64,000 nt of DNA from Eledone cirrhosa (Eukaryota), in assembly GCA_964016885.1 (NCBI GenBank), contig OZ024760.1:28396001-28460000 (forward strand), written 5' to 3'. Shown piece after piece: positions 12,464 to 64,000 of this stretch (positions are counted from its first letter, which is position 1; every line of letters starts with the position of its first letter). Under the pieces are notes generated by a model, which was given only the letters and a program-made list of their open reading frames with translations, was not told the DNA's origin and made no database searches. The translations under genes and the position numbers were made by a program.

Positions 12464-13599
12464 CCCTTTACATTACTCTATATATACTATTGTATTTTCA
12501 CAGTAAAGTCTTTACCTCACATAATATCTCACATAACATTTACATTACTCTATATATACTATTGTATTTTCATAGTAAAGGCTTTACCTCACATAATATC
12601 TCACATAACATTTACATTACTCTATATATACTATTGTATTTTCACAGTAAAGGCTTTACCTCACATAATATCTCACATAACATTTACATTACTCTATATA
12701 TACTATTGTATTTTCACAGTAAAGGCTTTACCTCACATAATATCTCACATAACATTTACATTACTCTATATATACTATTGTATTTTCATAGTAAAGGCTT
12801 TACCTCACATAACATTTACATTACTCTATATATACTATTGTATTTTCATAGTAAAAGCTTTACCTCACATAATATCTCACATAACATTTACATTACTCTA
12901 TATATACTATTGTATTTTCATAGTAAAAGCTTTACCTCACATAATATCTCACATAACATTTACATTACTCTATATATACTATTGTATTTTCATAGTAAAG
13001 GCTTTACCTCACATAATATCTCACATAACATTTACATTACTCTATATATACTATTGTATTTTCACAGTAAAAGCTTTACCTCACATAATATCTCACATAA
13101 CATTTACATTACTCTATATATACTATTGTATTTTCACAGTAAAGGCTTTACCTCACATAATATCTCACATAACATTTACATTACTCTATACATACTATTA
13201 TATTTTCACAGTAAAGGCTTTACCTCACATAATATCTCATATAACATTTACATTACTCTATATATACTATTGTATTTTCACAGTAAAGGCTTTACCTCAC
13301 ATAATATCTCACATAACATTTACATTACTCTATATATACTATTGTATTTTCAAGGTAAAAGCTTTACCTCACATAATATCTCACATAGCATTTACATTAC
13401 TCTATATATACTATTGTATTTTCATAGTAAAGGCTTTACCTCACATAATATCTCACATGATATTGAATCTATGAAATTTTGATATTATTAATTTTGAGAA
13501 CAATACCTTAACATAAGTATGAGTGGCCAGTTACAGCCGGTTTGAACAGAAAGCGCTGAGAGAATTCTGGCCGGATGTAGCCGGTTTAAATGCTAATGG
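12464..13599. mobile_element. piggyBac-like MITE with an internal 72-bp tandem expansion (about 13 units)
   Basis: TTAA-CCCTTTA...TAATGG-TTAA; unique right part matches the unexpanded copy at 30423-30641. Confidence 0.8.
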
Positions 13600-13739: not shown

Positions 13740-14140
13740 AAAAGGCAGAGAAAAAGAATGGGTGGAGGAGAGGGGGAGGGGGGGGAGAGGAGAAGAGGAG
13801 AGATAGGGAGAGGAGGGGGGGAGAAGGGGAGATGGGGAGGAGTGAGAGCAGAGTAGGGTAGAGAAGGAGGAGAGGAAAAGAGAGGGGTGATAGGAGAAGA
13901 GAGGAGAGGAGAGAAGAGGGGAGAGGGGGAGGAAGAGAAGGGAGATGAGAGGAGGAAGAGAGGGGAGTTGAGAGGAGAAGAGGGGAGAGAGGGAGGGAAG
14001 GAGGAAGAGAGGGGGAAGGGAGAAGGAAGAGGGGGAGAGGAGAGTGAGGGAGAGGGGGGGATAAGAGGGGAGAGTGGGAGAAAGGAGGAGAGGGTGAGGA
14101 GAGAGGAGAGAAGAGGAGGAGGAGCAGGAGAGAGGGCGAG
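13740..14140. repeat. Polypurine (GA-rich) low-complexity tract
   Basis: Almost only G and A for about 400 nt, next to the donor at 14152. Confidence 0.9.
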
Positions 14141-14151
14141 TAATATGTGAC

Positions 14152-14315
14152 CTTTGAGAGGCAGGTCACCTCTGTGGAGTGGTTGTAGAGTTTAGAGAGG
14201 TCAACTTTATTTTCCTCCATTGGTTGGTCAGACAAAAGTTGTTGAATGGAGTTGAGACACTTCTTCATGTCCAGAATATTGTTCAGTTCTTGGTATTTGT
14301 GTTTGAAAGGCACAT
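14152..14315 (-). CDS. MYSM1: MYSM1 penultimate exon: YVPFKHKYQEL...EVTCLSK
   Basis: tacag acceptor, which is the innermost unit of the 41-bp array; weak gtcaca donor; 164 nt, phase 1 to 0. Confidence 0.82.
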
Positions 14316-17300
14316 CTGTAATAAATTAGGGGACAGAATATATTTGAAAGGCACATCTGTAATAAATTAGGGGACAAAATATATTTGAAAGGCTCATCTG
14401 TAATAAATTAGAGGACAGATTATATTTGAAAGGCTCATCTGTAATAAATTAGGGGACAAAATATATTTGAAAGGCACATCTGTAATAAATTAGAGGACAG
14501 AATATATTTGAAAGGCTCATCTGTAATAAATTAGGGGACAGAATATATTTGAAAGGCTCATCTGTAATAAATTAGGGGACAATATATTTGAAAGACATCT
14601 GTAATAAATTAGGGGACAGAATATATTTGAAAGGCTCATCTGTAATAAAAAGGGGACAGAATATATTTGAAAGGCTCATCTGTAATAAATTAGAGGACAG
14701 AATATATTTTAAAGGCACATCTGTAATAAATTAGGGGACAAAATATATTTGAAAGGCACATCTGTAATAAATTAGGGGACAGAATATATTTGAAAGGCAC
14801 ATCTATAATAAATTAGGGGACAGAATATATTTGAAAGGGCTCATCTGTAATAAATTAGGGGACAGAATATATTTGAAAGGCAAATCTGTAATAAATTAAG
14901 GGACAGAATATATTTGAAAGGCTCATCTGTAATAAATTAGGGGATAGAATATATTTGAACAGCGCATCTGTAATAAATTAGGGGACAGAATATATTTGAA
15001 AGGCTCATCTGTAATAAATTAGGGGACAGAATATATTTGAAAGGCACATCTGCAATAAATTAGGGGACAGAATATATTTGAAAGGCTCATCTGTAATAAA
15101 TTAGTGGACAGAATATATTTGAAAGGCACATCTGTAATAAATTAGGGGACAGAATATATTTGAAAGGCTCATTTGTAATAAATTATAGGACAGAATATAT
15201 TTGAAAGGCACATCTATAATAAATTAGGAGAGAGAATATATTTGAAAGGCACATCTATAATAAATTAGGGGACAGAATATATTTGAAAGGCTCATCTGTA
15301 ATAAATTAGGGGACAGAATATATTTGAAAGGCACATTTGTTATAAATTAGGGGACAGAATATATTTGAAAGGCTCATCTGTAATAAATTAGGGGACAGAA
15401 TATATTTGAAAGGCTCATCTGTAATAAATTAAGGGATGGAATATATTTGAAAGGCTCATCTGTAATAAATTAAGGGACAGAATATATTTGAAAGGCACAT
15501 CTGTAATAAATTAGGGGACAGAATATATTTGAAAGGCTCATCTATAATAAATTAGGGGATAGAATATATTTGAACAGTGCATCTGTAATAAATTAGGGGA
15601 CAGAATATATTGGAAAGGCTCATCTGTAATAAATTAGGGGACAATATATTTGAAAGGCACATCTGTAATAAATTAGGGGACAGAATATATTTGAAAGGCA
15701 CATCTGTAATAAATTAGAGGACAATATATTTGAAAGGCACATCTGTAATAAATTAGGGGACAGAATATATTTGAAAGGCTCATCTGTAATAAATTAGGGG
15801 ACAAAATATATTTGAAAGGCTCATCTGTAATAAATTAGAGGACAGATTATATTTGAAAGGCACATCTGTAATAAATTAGAGGACAGAATATATTTGAAAG
15901 GCTCATCTGTAATAAATTAGGGGACAGAATATATTTGAAAGGCTCATCTGTAATAAATTATGGGACAATATATTTGAAAGACATCTGTAATAAATTAGGG
16001 GACAGAATATATTTGAAAGGCTCATCTGTAATAAAAAGGGGACAGAATATATTTGAAAGGCTCATCTGTAATAAATTAGAGGACAGAATATATTTTAAAG
16101 GCACATCTGTAATAAATTAGGGGACAGAATATATTTGAAAGGCACATCTATAATAAATTAGGGGACAGAATATATTTGAAAGGGCTCATCTGTAATAAAT
16201 TAGGGGACAGAATATATTTGAAAGGCAAATCTGTAATAAATTAAGGGACAGAATATATTTGAAAGGCTCATCTGTAATAAATTAGGGGATAGAATATATT
16301 TGAACAGCGCATCTGTAATAAATTAGGGGACAGAATATATTTGAAAGGCTCATCTGTAATAAATTAAGGGACAGAATATATTTGAAAGGCACATCTGCAA
16401 TAAATTAGGGGACAGAATATATTTGAAAGGCTCATCTGTAATAAATTAGTGGACAGAATATATTTGAAAGGCACATCTGTAATAAATTAGGGGACAGAAT
16501 ATATTTGAAAGGCTCATTTGTAATAAATTATAGGACAGAATATATTTGAAAGGCACATCTATAATAAATTAGGAGAGAGAATATATTTGAAAGGCACATT
16601 TGTTATAAATTAGGGGACAGAATATATTTGAAAGGCTCATCTGTAATAAATTAGGGGACAGAATATATTTGAAAGGCTCATCTGTAATAAATTAAGGGAT
16701 GGAATATATTTGAAAGGCTCATCTGTAATAAATTAAGGGACAGAATATATTTGAGAGGCTCATCTGTAATAAATGAGCGGACAGAATATATTTGAAAGGC
16801 CATCTGTTATAAATTAGGGGACAGAATATATTTGAAAGGCTCATCTGTAATAAATTAGAGGACAGAATATATTTGAAAGGCACATCTGTATTAAATTAGG
16901 GGACAGAATATATTTGAAAGGCTCATCTGTAATAAATTAGGGGACAGAATATATTTGAAAGGCTAATCTGTAATAAATTAGGGGACAGAATATATTTGAA
17001 AAGCACATCTGTAATAAATTAGGGGACAAAATATATTTGAAAAGCACATCTGTAATAAATTAGGGGACAGAATATATTTGAAAGGCACATTTGTTATAAA
17101 TTAGGGGACAGAATATATTTGAAAGGCTCATCTGTAATAAATTAGGGGACAGAATATATTTGAAAGGCTCATCTGTAATAAATTAGGGGACAGAATATAT
17201 TTGAAAGGCACATCTGTAATAAATTAGGGGGCAGAATATATTTGAAAGGCTCATCTGTAATAAATTAGGGGATAGAATATATTTGAACAGCGCATCTGTA

Positions 17301-19190
17301 ATAAATTAGGGGACAGAATATATTTGAAAGGCACATCTGTTATAAATTAGGGGACAGAATATATTTGAAAGGCTCATCTGTAATAAATTATGGGACAAAA
17401 TATATTTGAAAGGCACATCTGTAATAAATTAGGGGACAGAATATATTTGAAAGGCACATCTGCAATAAATTAGGGGACAGAATATATTTGAAAGGCTCAT
17501 CTGTAATAAATTAGTGGACAGAATATATTTGAAAGGCACATCTGCAATAAATTAGGGGACAGAATATATTTGAAAGGCTCATCTGTAAGAAATTAAGGGA
17601 TGGAATATATTTGAAAGGCTCATCTGTAATAAATTAAGGGACAGAATATATTTGAGAGGCTCATCTGTAATAAATGAGCAGACAGAATATATTTGAAAGG
17701 CCATCTGTTATAAATTAGGGGACAGAATATATTTGAAAGGCTCATCTGTAATAAATTAGGGGACAGAATATATTTGAAAGGCACATCTGCAATAAATTAG
17801 GGGACAGAATATATTTGAAAGGCTCATCTGTAATAAATTAGTGGACAGAATATATTTGAAAGGCACATCTGTAATAAATTAGAGGACAGAATATATTTGA
17901 AAGGCACATCTGTATTAAATTAGGGGACAGAATATATTTGAAAGGCTCATCTGTAATAAATTAGGGGACAGAATATATTTGAAAGGCTAATCTGTAATAA
18001 ATTAGGGGACAGAATATATTTGAAAGGCACATCTGTAATAAATTAGGGGACAAAATATATTTGAAAAGCACATCTGTAATAAATTAGGGGACAGAATATA
18101 TTTGAAAGGCACATCTATAATAAATTAGGGACAGAATATATTTGAAAGGGCTCATCTGTAATAAATTAGGGGACAGAATATATTTGAAAGGCACATCTGT
18201 AATAAATTAGGGGACAGAATATATTTGAAAGGCTCATCTATAATAAATTAGGGGTCAGAATATATTTGATAAGCTCATCTATAATAAATTAGGGGACAGA
18301 ATATATTCGAAAGGCTCATCTGTAATAAATTAGGAGACAGAATATATTTGAAAGGCTCATCTGTAATTTATTAAGGGACAGAATATATTTGAAAGGCACA
18401 TCTGTAATAAATTAGGGGACAGAATATATTTGAAAGGCTCATCTGTAATAAATTATAGGACAGAATATATTTGAAAGGCACATCTATAATAAATTAGGGG
18501 TCAGAATATATTTGATAATCTCATCTATAATAAATTAGGGGACAGAATATATTCGAAAGGCTCATCTGTAATAAATTAGGAGACAGAATATATTTGAAAG
18601 GCTCATCTGTAATAAATTAGGGGACAGAATATATTTGAAAGGCTCATCTGTAATAAATTAAGGGACAGAATATATTTGAAAGGCACATTTGTTATAAATT
18701 AGGGGACAGAATATATTTGAAAGGCTCATCTGTAATAAATTAGGGGACAGAATATATTTGAAAGGCTCATCTGTAATAAATTAAGGGAAGGAATATATTT
18801 GAAAGGCTCATCTGTAATAAATTAACGGACAGAATATATTTGAGAGGCTCATCTGTAATAAATGAGGGGACAGAATATATTTGAAAGGCTCATCTGTTAT
18901 AAATTAGGGGACAGAATATATTTGAAAGGCTCATCTGTAATAAATTAAGGGACAGAATATATTTGAAAGGCTCATCTGTTAAAAGGTAAGGGACAGCATA
19001 TATTTGAAAGGCCCAACTGTAATAAATTAGGGGTCAGAATATATTTGAAAGGCACATCTGTAATAAATTAGGGGACAGAATATATTTGAAAGGCTCATCT
19101 GTAAGAAGTAAAGGGACAAAATATATTTGAAGGGCATATCTGTTAAAAGTTAAGGGATAGAATATATTTGAAAGGCTCATCTGTAATAAA
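14302..19190. repeat. 41-bp tandem array (about 119 units) made of the MYSM1 3' splice site and exon start
   Basis: Minus-strand unit TATTCTGTCCCCTAATTTATTACAG|ATGTGCCTTTCAAATA; period 41 (14311 to 14352); higher-order block duplication (about 14578 versus 15965). Confidence 0.95.
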
Positions 19191-19194
19191 TAGG

Positions 19195-19335
19195 TTACTA
19201 GTACTTTATTTTATTGACCCCGTAAGGTTGAAAGGCAAAGGTAACCTCGGTGGGATATGAACCCAGGATGTAAAGGGCCACGACTCTATGCTGCAAAGCA
19301 TGGCGTCTTACACTCTACCGATACTGCTAACTCAC
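19195..19335 (-). mobile_element. tRNA-headed SINE with a GCCTTTCATCCTTACGGGGTCGATAAAATAAAGTACC-type central domain
   Basis: A/B-box-like head. Related copies at about 29460-29590, 31455-31610, 36945-37042, 42855-43142, 50155-50500 and 50778-51196. Resembles the Meta/MESC domain from memory; not verified. Confidence 0.7.
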
Positions 19336-19496
19336 AATGGTTTCTAATTTAAGGACAAGGCCAGTAATTTGGAGGAGGAAGAAAGGTGATTATAGTGCCT
19401 GAAGGAGGTGAAAAACAAAGTTGACCCTTGTGTGATTTGATCAGAATGTAAAGAAGCCAGAAGAAGAAGAATGATGGGGGAAAAGCAGCAATGAAT

Positions 19497-20150
19497 AACT
19501 TCTTCTTCGCCCACTTATTCCTGAGAGTGTCATGGGGTCAGAGTCCTCAAACACTCCTTCTAGTAGGTCCTGTCAGAAGCAACTGTCTCCAACTGATCCA
19601 GCTAGACCCTCAAGTGAGACCAGCCAAGCTCATGGATGTTATCCAAACATCTTGCTCAGGGTCTACCCCTGGGTCTCCTGCCTGTTGGTTTTGGCCATAA
19701 AAGCTGTCCATATTATCAGAGCTATGATCTCTCAATTCAGAGAAGTAACAGCTCTACCTGGAGTGACTCTCTGATCTCTGAGCTACACATTTTGTCGAGT
19801 AATGTTACACCAAAGACCCTTCGGAGGAACCCCATTTTGTCCACTTGTATTCGCGATCGTACTCTTTCAGTCATTACCCAAAATTCATGACCATAGGTAA
19901 GGGTTGACACAAAAACTGCCTCCCTTCTTCTGATTACTGAATGCTGAAGCTGGTGCATTACTGCACCAGCTTTTGTAATACTTGGACTTAACTCAGCCTC
20001 CTGCCTTCCATCACTCATGAACACAACCCTGAGATACTTGAACTTCTCTACCTGCTTCAGTGGAACTCTATTCATATGTAGCATGCACTGCGCAGGCTTC
20101 CTTGAGCGGACGAGTGTCTCAGTTTTCCCAGCACTAGGCATCAAACCTAT
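19497..20150 (-). mobile_element. RTE (Expander/Rex3-like) 3' fragment
   Basis: LKQVEKFKYL...STLTYGHEFWVMTERVRSRIQ; (GAA)n tail. Confidence 0.85.
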
Positions 20151-20173
20151 CTAGTGACCAATAACTGACTTAC

Positions 20174-20294
20174 ATTTTAAATCAGGTTCCATGCTTTCTT
20201 CAACTGTTAAACAACACATTTCTGATTGAACTTTGCCCATATATGGACTGACAATGAAAGCCACGTATTTGGATCCACCACGAGCAAACCATTC
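20174..20294 (-). CDS. MYSM1: MYSM1 exon: EWFARGGSKYVAFIVSPYMGKVQSEMCCLTVEESMEPDLK
   Basis: ttcag acceptor, gtaagt donor; 121 nt, phase 0 to 1; F.RGG.K....IVSPY end of MPN. Confidence 0.92.
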
Positions 20295-58194: not shown

Positions 58195-58291
58195 TTGTTC
58201 CAACATCCATGGAGGGTTGGTATATTCTGGTAATAAATTGGCACTCTTTGATGGTAACTCATTAACATCATAAGCAATGATTCCATTTGGT
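58195..58291 (-). CDS. MYSM1: MYSM1 exon (first visible): PNGIIAYDVNELPSKSANLLPEYTNPPWMLEQ
   Basis: ttttag acceptor and gtaagt donor; 97 nt, phase 2 in and 0 out; joins the next exon in frame (WMLEQ|GWTLD). No start codon, so upstream exon(s) are missing. Confidence 0.8.
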
Positions 58292-58409: not shown

Positions 58410-59042
58410 TCCTTCTTCTTCTTCTTCACCCACTTGTTCCTGGGCAGTAGAGTTCTCAAACACTCCTTCCAGGATCTCCTGTCACAAGCAGTCATCTCCA
58501 ATTGATCCATCTGGATCCCTAAGCGTGACCAGCCAAGCTCAAGGATGATGTTATCCAACCACCTTGCTCAGGGTCTACCCGTGGGTCTCCTGCCATTTGG
58601 TTTTGCTCGTAAAATCTGTCCGGCAATTCTTTCCTTAGACATTATAACCACATGTCCATAGTATTGGAGCTGTGATCTCTCAATTCGGAGAAGGAGCAGC
58701 TCTACCTGGAGTGACTCTCTCATCTCCAAGCTATGCACTCTATCAAGTAACATTACTCAAGAAGACCCTTTGGAGGAACCCCATTTCAGGTATCACCGTC
58801 TCCAGTCTGTATCTCCCAGCTGGAAGGAGAGATGTTGCAGGCTTTCAAGTCTCTCCGGCATGCATCCCTGAAACAGAGCAATGGGCAACCCACGCACCTG
58901 GTGCCAGGTGGCTAACTGTCTGTACAGGGTGTCTTTTGACAACCTCCCATCCTCCAAATGCTTAATATCTCCTAACCAACAAAGACAGCACTGGCTCAGC
59001 AGGGAATACATGCTGGGAATCTTGGCACATTGTAGTATGTCC
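58410..59042 (-). mobile_element. Two adjacent RTE-like fragments
   Basis: 58410-58790 Expander-like (LRIERSQL..YGHV); 58793-59042 IPSMYSLL...WLG...EDGRL.KD.LY. Confidence 0.75.
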
Positions 59043-62000
59043 TTGTGAGGGGTATGGTCCTACCAGCTGACTGAGGATGTTATTGTGTGGGGTATGGTCC
59101 TACCAGCTGACTGAGGATGTCCTTGTGTGGGGTATGGTCCTACCAGCTGACTGAGGGTGTCCTTGTATGGGGTATGATCCTACCAGCTGACTGAGGATGT
59201 CCTTGTGTGGGGTATGGTCCTATCAGCTGACTGAGGATGTCCTTGTGTGGGGTATGGTCCTACCAGCTGACTGAGGATGTCCTTGTGTGGGGTATGGTCC
59301 TACCAGCTGACTGAGGATGTCCTTGTATGGGGTATGGTCCTACCAGCTGACTGAGGATGTCCTTGTGTGGGGTATGGTCCTACCAGCTGACTGTGAGGAT
59401 GTCCTTGTATGGGGTATAGTCCTACCAGCTGACTGAGGATGTCCTTGTGTGGGGTATGGTCCTACCAGCTGACTGAGGATGTCCTTGTGTGGGGTATGGT
59501 CCTACCAGCTGACTGAGGATGTCCTTATGTGGGGTATGGTCCTACCAGATGACTGTGAGGATGTCCTTGCGTGGGGTATAGTCCTACCAGCTGACTCTGA
59601 GGATGTCCTTGTGTGGGATATGGTCCTACCAGCTGACTGTGAGGATGTCCTTGTGTGGGGTATGGTCCTACCAGCTGACTGTGAGGATGTCCTTGTGTGG
59701 GGTATGGTCTTACCAGCGGACTCTGAGGATGTCCTTGTATGGGGTATGGTGCTACCAGCTGACTGAGGATGTCCTTGTGTGGGGTATGGTCCTACCAGCT
59801 GACTGTGAGGATGTCCTTGTGTGGGGTATGGTCCTACCAGCTGACTGTGAGGATGTCCTTGTGTGGGGTATGGTCCTACCAGCTGACTGAGGATGTCCTT
59901 GTGTGGGGTATGGTCCTACCAGCTGACTGAGGATGTCCTTGTGTGGGGTATGGTCCTACCAGCTAACTGTGAGGATGTCCTTGTGTGGGGTATAGTCCTA
60001 CCAGCTGACTCTGAGGATGTCCTTGTGTGGGGTATGGTCCTACCAGCTGACTGAGGATGTCCTTGTGTGGGGTATAGTCCTACCAGCTGACTCTGAGGAT
60101 GTCCTTGTGTGGGGTATGGTCCTACCAGCTGACTGAGGATGTCCTTGTGTGGGGTATAGTCCTACCAGCTGACTGAGGATGTCCTTGTGTGGGGTATAGT
60201 CCTACCAGTTGACTGAGGATGTCCTTGTGTGGGGTATAGTCCTACCAGCTGACTGAGGATGTCCTTGTGTGGGCTATAGTCCTACCAGCTGACTGAGAAT
60301 GTCCTGGTATGGGGTATGGTCCTACCAGCTGACTGAGGATGTCCTTGTATGGGGTATAGTCCTACCAGCTGACTGACGATGTCCTTGTGTGGGGTATAGT
60401 CCTACCAGCTGACTGAGGATGTCCTTGTGTGGGGGTATAGTCCTACCAGCTGACTGAGGATGTCCTTGTATGGGGTATGGTCCTACCAGGTGACTGAGAA
60501 TGTCCTTGTATGGGGTATGGTCCTACCAGCTGACTGTGAGGATGTCCTTGTGTGGGGTATGGTCCTACCAGCTGACTGTGAGGATGTCCTTGGGTGGAGT
60601 ATGGTCCTACCAGCTGACTGAGGATGTCCTTGTGTGGGGTATGGTCCTACCAGCTGACTGTGAGGATGTCCTTGTGTGGGGTATGGTCCTACCAGCTGAC
60701 TGTGAGGATGTCCTTGTGTGGGGTATGGTCCTACCAGCTGACTGAGGATGTCCTTGTATGGGGTATGGTCCTACCAGCTGACTCTGAGGATGTCCTTGTG
60801 TGGGGTATGGTCCTACCAGCTGACTGAGGATGTCCTTGTGTGGTGTATGGTCCTACCAGCTGTCTGTGAGGATGTCCTTGTGTGGGGTATGGTCCTACCA
60901 GCTGACTGTGAGGATGTCCTTGTGTGGGGTATGGCCCTACCAGCTGACTGAGTATGTCCTTGTGTGGGGTATGGTCCTACCAGCTGACTGAGGATGTCCT
61001 TGTGTGGGGTATGGTCCTACCAGCTGACTGAGGATGTCCTTGTGTGGGGTATGGTCCTACCAGCTGACTGTGAGGATGTCCTTGTGTGGGGTATGGTCCT
61101 ACCAGCTGACTGAGGATGTCCTTGTGTGGGGTATGGTCCTACCAGCTGTCTGTGAGGATGTCCTTGTGTGGGGTATGGTCCTACCAGCTGACTGAGGATG
61201 TCCTTATGTGGGGTATGGTCCTGCCAGCTGACTGAGGATATCCTTGTGTGGGGTATGGTCCTACCAGCTGACTGTGAGGATGTCCTTGTATGGGGTATGG
61301 TCCTACCAGCTGACTGTGAGGATGTCCTTGTGTGGGGTATGGTCCTACCAGCTGACTGAGGATGTCCTTGTGTGGGGTATAGTCCTACCAGCTGACTGTG
61401 AGGATGTCCTTGTATGGGGTATGGTCCTACCAGCTGACTGTGAGGATGTCCTTGTGTGGGGTATAGTCCTACCAGCTGACTGAGGAGGTCCTTGTGTGGG
61501 GTATGGTCCTACCAGCTGACTGTGAGGATGTCCTTGTGTGGGGTATAGTCCTACCAGCTGACTGAGGATGTCCTTGTGTGGGGTATGGTACTACCAGCTG
61601 ACTGAGGATGTCCTTGTATGGGGTATAGTCCTACCAGCTGACTGAGGATGTCCTTGTGTGGGGTATGGTCCTACCAGTTGACTGAGGATGTCCTTGTATG
61701 GGGTATAGTCCTACCAGCTGACTGAGGATGTCCTTGTGTGGGGTATGGTCCTACCAGCTGACTGAGGATGTCCTTGTGTGGGGTATGGTCCTACCAGCTG
61801 AAAGGATGTCCTTGTATGGAGTATGGTCCTACCAGCTGACTGTGAGGATGTCCTTGTGTGGGGTATGGTCCTACCAGCTGACTGAGGATGTCCTTGTATG
61901 GAGTATGGTCCTACCAGCTGACTGAGGATGTCCTTGTGTGGGGTATGGTCCTACCAGCTGACTGAGGATGTCCTTGTATGGAGTATGGTCCTACCAGCTG

Positions 62001-64000
62001 ACTGAGGATGTCCTTGTGTGGGGTATTGTCCTACCAGCTGACTGAGGATGTCCTTGTGTGGGGTATAGTCCTACCAGCTGACTGAGGATGTCCTTGTATG
62101 GAGTATGGTCCTACCAGCTGACTGAGGATGTCCTTGTGTGGGGTATGGTCCTACCAGCTGACTGAGGATGTCCTTGTGTGGGGTATGGTCCTACCAGCTG
62201 ACTGTGAGGATGTCGTTGTGTGGGGTATAGTCCTACCAGCTGACTGAGGATGTCCTTGTGTGGGGTATGGTCCTACCAGCTGACTGAGGATGTCCTTGTG
62301 TGGGGTATAGTCCTACCAGCTGACTGAGGATGTCCTTGTATGGAGTATGGTCCTACCAGCTGACTGAGGATGTCCTTGTGTGGGGTATGGTCCTACCAGC
62401 TGACTGAGGATGTCCTTGTGTGGGGTATGGTCCTACCAGCTGACTGAGGATGTCCTTGTATGGAGTATGGTCCTACCAGCTGACTGAGGATGTCCTTGTG
62501 TGGGGTATTGTCCTACCAGCTGACTGAGGATGTCCTTGTGTGGGGTATAGTCCTACCAGCTGACTGAGGATGTCCTTGTATGGAGTATGGTCCTACCAGC
62601 TGACTGAGGATGTCCTTGTGTGGGGTATGGTCCTACCAGCTGACTGAGGATGTCCTTGTGTGGGGTATGGTCCTACCAGCTGACTGTGAGGATGTCGTTG
62701 TGTGGGGTATAGTCCTACCAGCTGACTGAGGATGTCCTTGTGTGGGGTATGGTCCTACCAGCTGACTGAGGATGTCCTTGTGTGGGGTATGGTCCTACCA
62801 GCTAACTGTGAGGATGTCCTTGTGTGGGGTATAGTCCTACCAGCTGACTCTGAGGATGTCCTTGTGTGGGGTATGGTCAAACCAGCTGACTGAGGATGTC
62901 CTTGTGTGGGGTATAGTCCTACCAGCTGACTCTGAGGATGTCCTTGTGTGGGGTATGGTCCTACCAGCTGACTGAGGATGTCCTTGTGTGGGGTATAGTC
63001 CTACCAGCTGACTGAGGATGTCCTTGTGTGGGGTATAGTCCTACCAGTTGACTGAGGATGTCCTTGTGTGGGGTATAGTCCTACCAGCTGACTGAGGATG
63101 TCCTTGTGTGGGCTATAGTCCTACCAGCTGACTGAGAATGTCCTTGTATGGGGTATGGTCCTACCAGCTGACTGAGGATGTCCTTGTATGGGGTATAGTC
63201 CTACCAGCTGACTGACGATGTCCTTGTGTGGGGTATAGTCCTACCAGCTGACTGAGGATGTCCTTGTGTGGGGGTATAGTCCTACCAGCTGACTGAGGAT
63301 GTCCTTGTATGGGGTATGGTCCTACCAGGTGACTGAGAATGTCCTTGTATGGGGTATGGTCCTACCAGCTGACTGTGAGGATGTCCTTGTGTGGGGTATG
63401 GTCCTACCAGCTGACTGTGAGGATGTCCTTGGGTGGAGTATGGTCCTACCAGCTGACTGAGGATGTCCTTGTGTGGGGTATGGTCCTACCAGCTGACTGT
63501 GAGGATGTCCTTGTGTGGGGTATGGTCCTACCAGCTGACTGTGAGGATGTCCTTGTGTGGGGTATGGTCCTACCAGCTGACTGAGGATGTCCTTGTATGG
63601 GGTATGGTCCTACCAGCTGACTCTGAGGATGTCCTTGTGTGGGGTATGGTCCTACCAGCTGACTGAGGATGTCCTTGTGTGGTGTATGGTCCTACCAGCT
63701 GACTGTGAGGATGTCCTTGTGTGGGGTATGGTCCTACCAGCTGACTGTGAGGATGTCCTTGTGTGGGGTATGGCCCTACCAGCTGACTGAGTATGTCCTT
63801 GTGTGGGGTATGGTCCTACCAGCTGACTGAGGATGTCCTTGTGTGGGGTATGGTCCTACCATCTGACTGAGGATGTCCTTGTGTGGGGTATGGTCCTACC
63901 AGCTGACTGTGAGGATGTCCTTGTGTGGGGTATGGTCCTACCAGCTGACTGAGGATGTCCTTGTGTGGGGTATGGTCCTACCAGCTGACTGTGAGGATGT
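59043..64000. repeat. 40/42-bp tandem array (about 120 units, runs off the window) derived from an RTE ORF segment
   Basis: Unit GAGGATGTCCTTGTGTGGGGTATGGTCCTACCAGCTGACT(GT), continuous with the RTE fragment on its left; 2839-bp higher-order duplication (ORFs 60500 and 63339). Confidence 0.95.

Follow-up and report, generated by a model that had tools for sequence, protein, structure and literature searches.

The MYSM1 locus

The window, the whole 64,000-bp stretch of Eledone cirrhosa DNA analysed here, contains about 15 exons of a MYSM1 gene on the minus strand, placed between 58296 and 12332 by tblastn with the Octopus vulgaris MYSM1 protein as query. When the translation of 46578-46772 was used as a query, two proteins were returned among 23 candidates. 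The best was a MYSM1-like protein from O. vulgaris (79% identity), whose cluster includes entries from O. sinensis and O. bimaculoides. The features of the gene and its introns described below all lie on the minus strand.

Amino acids 684-724 of the O. vulgaris protein aligned at 20297-20175, amino acids 726-781 at 14313-14149 and amino acids 781-815 at 12433-12332. The first block corresponds to the exon at 20174-20294, the end of the MPN/JAMM region, which is followed by a GTAAGT donor at 20173. The second corresponds to the penultimate coding exon at 14152-14315 (O. vulgaris amino acids ~725-780, 75% identity), and the third to the last coding exon at 12242-12433, which starts at 12433 and has an approximate end at the stop region. 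The O. vulgaris protein contains no insert at the exon junction on the side of the repeat array described below. The penultimate exon ends at an AAG/GTCACA donor (14146-14151) that matches the consensus at five of nine bases. Just downstream of it lies a pyrimidine-rich low-complexity tract (13765-14140), which on the gene strand is a 375-nt C/T-rich stretch beginning about 12 nt past the GTCACA donor. Proteins that help the donor could bind to this tract.

Elsewhere in the gene, the intron at ~55098-52378, which follows the exon at 55169-55099, starts with GTATCCTTT and carries, a short distance ahead of its AG, a TTCCTTCAAT motif. By the U12 consensus, this intron looks U12-type and would thus be a substrate of the minor spliceosome. 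An 18-bp repeat of 10.5 copies (48370-48558) is located within a coding exon, between two blocks that align to O. vulgaris, and is an in-frame expansion of six-residue units that is probably lineage-specific. The last coding exon contains a 12-bp repeat of 2.6 copies (12299-12329), and a 39-bp repeat of 3.1 copies is found just past the stop (12113-12229).

Structure and variation of the array

The original prediction described a 4.9-kb satellite of about 119 copies that fills most of the intron at 14316-20173. TRF identified this array as a minisatellite with a period of 41 bp and 119.6 copies at 14302-19191 (score 8164, 91% matches), which occupies 4876 of the 5858 intron nucleotides (~83%). 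The unit proved to be made up as predicted, from the acceptor and the first 14 nucleotides of the exon: it comprises the last 27 nucleotides of the intron (-27 to -1) followed by exon positions +1 to +14. The last unit was also correctly identified as the real acceptor, since it runs into the exon at 14315, where the likeness to the repeat ends at position +15 of the exon, and a contig of sequencing run X4 uses that acceptor. This authentic 3' splice site region (14316-14342) contains the CAG at 14318-14316 and a CTAAT motif. As the branch-like A of the motif is at only -11 relative to its own AG, CTAAT may not serve its own unit as the branch point in use.

Splitting the array on the minus strand yielded 120 acceptor-like positions, among them the real one; 103 are CAG, 11 are TAG and 6 are CAA. 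They are spaced by exactly 41 bp in 109 of 119 intervals. As the original prediction held, most units keep CAG or TAG: 113 of the 119 upstream copies, hereafter decoys, have YAG, and the other six have CAA. The pyrimidine fraction before the AG is 0.73, which is within the range of the other acceptors of the gene. The unit is unstructured and has a GC content of ~30%.

The 119 units fall into 53 distinct types. The commonest variant has an A at +4, present in 62 of 109 units, while 42 of 109 have the T of the exon. The units at the far end are the most diverged of the array, with 5, 8, 0, 2 and 8 differences from the column majority, compared to 0-4 in most other units. Within the array (14337-16900), a block has been duplicated: 16900-15723 and 15556-14337 are identical at 1146 of 1178 aligned bases, at an offset of ~1345 bp, and exact identity between the two offset parts extends over 270 bp at most. 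At its far end, the array adjoins an apparent tail of a dispersed repeat (19192-19330), where the first unit is truncated. A tail resembling 19192-19330 also follows the exon at 37181-37074.

Acceptor use in sequencing runs

Three of four public runs, all from one study and with no record of their kind, were compared to 14135-14380; a search for runs covering 12200-12460 listed none labelled as RNA. Run X4 (87.8 million letters, also of a kind not on record) contains a contig of 1609 nt at a depth of 7.76 that matches 14152-14315 exactly, without additional letters. One loose end matches the 30 nt with which the exon at 20294-20174 ends, and the other the opening 30 nt of the exon that starts at 12433. 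The junctions are exact: the 20294-20174 exon is joined to position 14315, and position 14152 continues into the last exon. Since the contig is spliced, it is most likely derived from RNA. It bears out the predictions that the exon at 14152-14315 is spliced in, that its GTCACA donor is used and that the decoys are skipped, as this one spliced contig joins only the real acceptor.

No decoy-containing contig was found in X4, nor did any X4 contig match 14324-14380, although contigs drop rare variants, and for decoys beyond 14380 the probing relied on how closely they resemble the last two units. A single contig at a depth of 7.76 cannot reveal forms that are rare or degraded by nonsense-mediated decay (NMD). 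Runs X1 and X2, which come from one sample, yielded 32 and 21 contig records, all of which fall on the repeat and include many unit variants; neither run has a contig on 14135-14296, which is uninformative. The records attest the repeat in reads but give no measure of its length, and they are possibly the source of the assembly itself rather than independent of it.

Origin of the unit

We compared 14150-14400 to the 3.0 Gb genome, a search that can skip common words, and all 50 of 50 DNA matches were in the array or its exon. Likewise, a 24-nt piece of the unit had 23 exact matches in the genome, all 23 inside the array. We therefore rejected the insertion of a dispersed satellite, as both sets of matches are confined to the MYSM1 locus. 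Within the reach of these searches, the unit thus originates from the boundary itself and belongs to no dispersed family. The array would then have arisen when 41 bp across the acceptor were duplicated in tandem, a step probably followed by amplification through slippage and unequal exchange. Ordinary minisatellite turnover of this kind is suggested by the 1.2-kb internal block duplication and by the more diverged units at the far end.

Choice of the last acceptor

Exon definition is a reasonable and the simplest account of how the last acceptor could be chosen over the decoys. The GTs in the array match the donor consensus at no more than four of nine bases, whereas the exon's own donor matches at five and the other standard donors of the gene at six to nine. 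Purine-rich 4-mers are a crude stand-in for exonic enhancers. Four of them occur seven times in the 164-nt exon and never in the 4876 nt of the array; for donors and enhancers alike, the scoring is crude counting rather than the output of trained models. In the X4 contig, donor 20173 is spliced to acceptor 14316, and this last acceptor alone appears to have both a purine-rich exon after it and a donor 164 nt away. The decoys would remain uncommitted because they are followed by a pyrimidine- and AT-rich repeat that has no good donor.

The three nearest decoys are nevertheless plausible competitors. They would yield exons of 205, 246 and 287 nt, which are ordinary sizes, and their intron side is nearly identical to that of the real acceptor. 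Considering these similarities and that the donor of the exon is the weakest standard donor in the gene, exon definition is not self-evidently sufficient.

Three other possibilities were rejected or appear unlikely. Masking of the decoys by hairpins was rejected, as the last five units together with the start of the exon are less stably folded than any of 200 shuffled sequences (z +2.54). Pseudo-exons inside the array are unlikely, since its best GT matches only 4/9. At a recursive-splicing (ratchet) site, GT comes directly after the AG and splicing recreates a donor. The AG or AA of the units is followed by AT at 119 of 120 positions, by TT at one and by GT at none, and recursive splicing was rejected on these grounds. 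The lack of additional letters in the X4 contig also disfavours it.

Consequences of decoy use

Transcripts are subject to NMD when a stop precedes the last junction by more than 50 nt. In simulated splicing of the 120 acceptor-like positions, all 119 upstream positions produced such a stop, and only the real acceptor read into the last exon. The frame shifts foreseen from the unit length were recovered: moving one unit upstream places a stop 131 nt before the last junction and moving two units places it 76 nt before, while with a three-unit shift the stop falls within the third unit, 174 nt before the junction. Slipping to any decoy would thus lead to a premature stop and likely to removal by NMD. 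This removal would lower the cost of such slips, allowing the array to persist. Because all decoys lead to premature stops, NMD could also hide leakage in steady-state RNA. The stops are no sign of design, however, since they would come from any AT-rich unit with a length not divisible by three, such as 41 bp.

Conservation and chance expectation

Among the 109 full-length units, the A at -2 is invariant, as are five other of the 41 columns, and the G at -1 is changed in six. We found no signal of selection on the AG in either direction among these units, whose counts are not independent given the block duplications.

The genome is rich in minisatellites, and the window contains 19 complex ones that together cover 21,760 of its 64,000 bp. 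If these were seeded at random, up to 0.65 boundary-spanning arrays would be expected over the 28 splice sites of the gene, which is an upper bound because dispersed families and the 41-bp array itself were counted. A 61-bp family is found at 62-926 and 31971-33310, a 72-bp family at 12467-13458, 34537-36030 and 41781-42069, and a 48/49-bp family at 9411-9867, 38056-41103 and 47774-47975. Recurring at several places in the window, these families are dispersed, which the 41-bp array is not. At 33310, the 61-bp unit follows on from the end of a reading frame that is presumably LINE-like. Another array, with a 40-bp unit and at least 122 copies (59037-64000), is located upstream of the exon at 58290 on the gene strand, without touching that exon, and runs off the end of the window. 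The copy number of the 41-bp array is high, though arrays of 62 and 122 copies share the same window.

As a yardstick we surveyed genomic matches to myosins and kinesins, using 172 of the 179 listed matches and the 340 of 344 edges with enough flank (412 kb). Six matches on two small contigs and one antisense to another match were dropped. The edges are ends of profile matches rather than verified splice sites. Twelve flagged loci were read base by base; the others were judged from their unit and coordinates. Under loose criteria, three independent boundary-spanning repeats were found at the 340 edges, compared to 5.4 expected, and under strict criteria one, in a kinesin, compared to 2.5 expected.

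The kinesin case is a putative second acceptor mirage with a 119/120-bp unit, located before an exon of a recently duplicated kinesin whose several copies are near-identical, with 4.3 units each in L058 (957-1471) and L055 (1746-2261), 2.3 units in L059 (1746-2022) and a partial array in L053 (1300-1480). As these copies differ in unit number, they are a natural series for comparing copy numbers. The other two cases are putative donor-side duplications in two myosin genes, a degenerate 24-bp unit of 2.4 copies (L022, 1707-1763) and a 51-bp unit of 2.0 copies (L103, 722-824). In seven further loci (L102, L112, L009, L077, L110, L116 and L023), the repeat does not cross the boundary, and these were rejected. 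A wider screen of the survey at 41-130 nt revealed no further boundary-spanning repeats. Boundary-spanning repeats are therefore ordinary in the E. cirrhosa genome and occur at about the rate expected by chance.

Discussion

Minisatellite-like repeats of splice boundaries are known as mirages, the original paper on Adh3 being that of Canestro in 2002. In amphioxus, mirages are described as minisatellite-like duplications of intron-exon boundaries (PMC3087553), and further examples are reported for Adh, troponin C and PGBD5 (PMC3902484). The mirage in BflGb6 has three to six units composed of the 3' end of an intron and the start of the next exon, many of which keep their splice signals (PMC3087553). 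Regular splicing is reported to be undisturbed (PMC3087553, PMC3902484), and the arrays to be unstable in length (PMC3087553). The MYSM1 array resembles the amphioxus mirages in that its tandem unit spans a splice boundary and its edge units escape homogenisation (PMC3087553, PMC3902484). Like BflGb6, it copies the 3' end of an intron together with the 5' portion of the next exon, and not all of its units keep the signals (PMC3087553). It differs from BflGb6 in its octopod mollusc host, in having ~120 copies rather than three to six, and in its short unit with only 14 exon nucleotides.

Five features of mirages are found in the MYSM1 array. The unit spans the boundary and is repeated head to tail. 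The splice dinucleotide is present in many, but not all, copies (YAG in 113 of 119 upstream). Within the limits of both genome searches, the unit is derived from its own locus. Splicing at the authentic site persists, as seen in one spliced contig of a kind that drops rare forms. Finally, the homogenised interior, diverged edge and internal block duplication are those of minisatellite turnover. The MYSM1 array is thus an unusually long example of a described class of repeats (PMC3087553). We found no cephalopod case of a mirage or an intronic minisatellite in the largely open-access literature searched, and a literature search on VNTRs and UPF3A returned nothing.

Two human VNTRs provide further comparisons. 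In the 37-bp VNTR of F7 intron 7, the first unit spans the exon-intron boundary and the identical pseudo-sites are reported to be silent (PMC1557585). As in the spliced MYSM1 contig, only the site adjacent to the exon is used. The F7 repeat is on the donor side, where the used site is transcribed first, whereas the MYSM1 array is on the acceptor side, where it is transcribed last. A simple 5'-to-3' first-come rule therefore cannot explain MYSM1. The 38-bp VNTR6-1 of TERT, which is likewise intronic and of similar unit size, is a precedent for an effect of length on splicing, as it is reported to shift splicing and NMD through an expandable G-quadruplex (PMC11830802). The abstract of that study contains no description of splice-site copies, and the MYSM1 unit, being AT-rich and unstructured, differs from a G-quadruplex.

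Taken together, we consider it quite probable that the array is a ~120-copy, locus-born and likely neutral mirage, whose last copy, the only one joined in the sole spliced transcript observed, is probably chosen by exon definition. The original prediction stands as far as the position of the real acceptor, the use of GTCACA and the skipping of decoys in one contig are concerned, while its regulatory and sponge proposals find no support. The former proposed that array length tunes the share of transcripts sent to NMD: some would use the nearest decoys, or undergo retention or skipping, in a fraction set by copy number or tissue. The 119 premature stops, the YAG kept in 113 copies, the weak exon donor and the TERT precedent, though acting via a G-quadruplex, all agree with such regulation. 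However, the stops follow automatically from the unit, X4 holds no decoy-containing contig (a weak argument), the AG columns are not unusually conserved, such arrays occur at about the rate expected by chance, and the F7 pseudo-sites are silent (PMC1557585). We therefore regard this reading as unlikely, and give length-dependent leakage to NMD a small chance.

The nascent array could instead act as a sponge for U2AF, SF1 or U2 snRNP and affect the splicing of MYSM1 or other genes, as each pre-mRNA would carry ~113 pyrimidine-tract/AG motifs with a pyrimidine fraction of 0.73. We find this extremely improbable, since a single-locus intron would provide few molecules relative to the whole intron pool of the cell, the branch-like A is at only -11, and neither AG conservation nor an excess of such repeats over chance points to selection. 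Nor is there a sign of stable intronic RNA, as X4 has no contig on the repeat part of 14135-14380. It is also very unlikely that the array is real but inflated or misassembled. The internal 1.2-kb duplication, at 97% identity, would invite such an error, but 53 unit types among 119 and a longest offset match of 270 bp speak against it. So do runs X1 and X2, albeit not independently, with many unit variants at summed depths of hundreds to thousands, including a rare variant of the assembly.

The array shows that 113 near-identical AG acceptors, each transcribed ahead of the true one, can be bypassed by a spliceosome. This argues against a first-come choice of acceptor and for exon definition, and makes the array a natural substrate for testing how 3' splice sites are chosen. 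We hold it improbable that array length is a heritable, mutable dosage dial for the histone H2A deubiquitinase MYSM1, working through decoy slippage and NMD, and that mirages, which would likely number thousands per genome at about 1% of splice sites, constitute widespread unrecognised splicing variation in cephalopods. From the small survey, boundary-spanning repeats seem to affect something like 1% of the splice sites of the E. cirrhosa genome, and at this frequency they would be relevant to gene annotation and as a source from which introns could be gained. The MYSM1 array itself would matter more only if its copy number changed the output of the gene.
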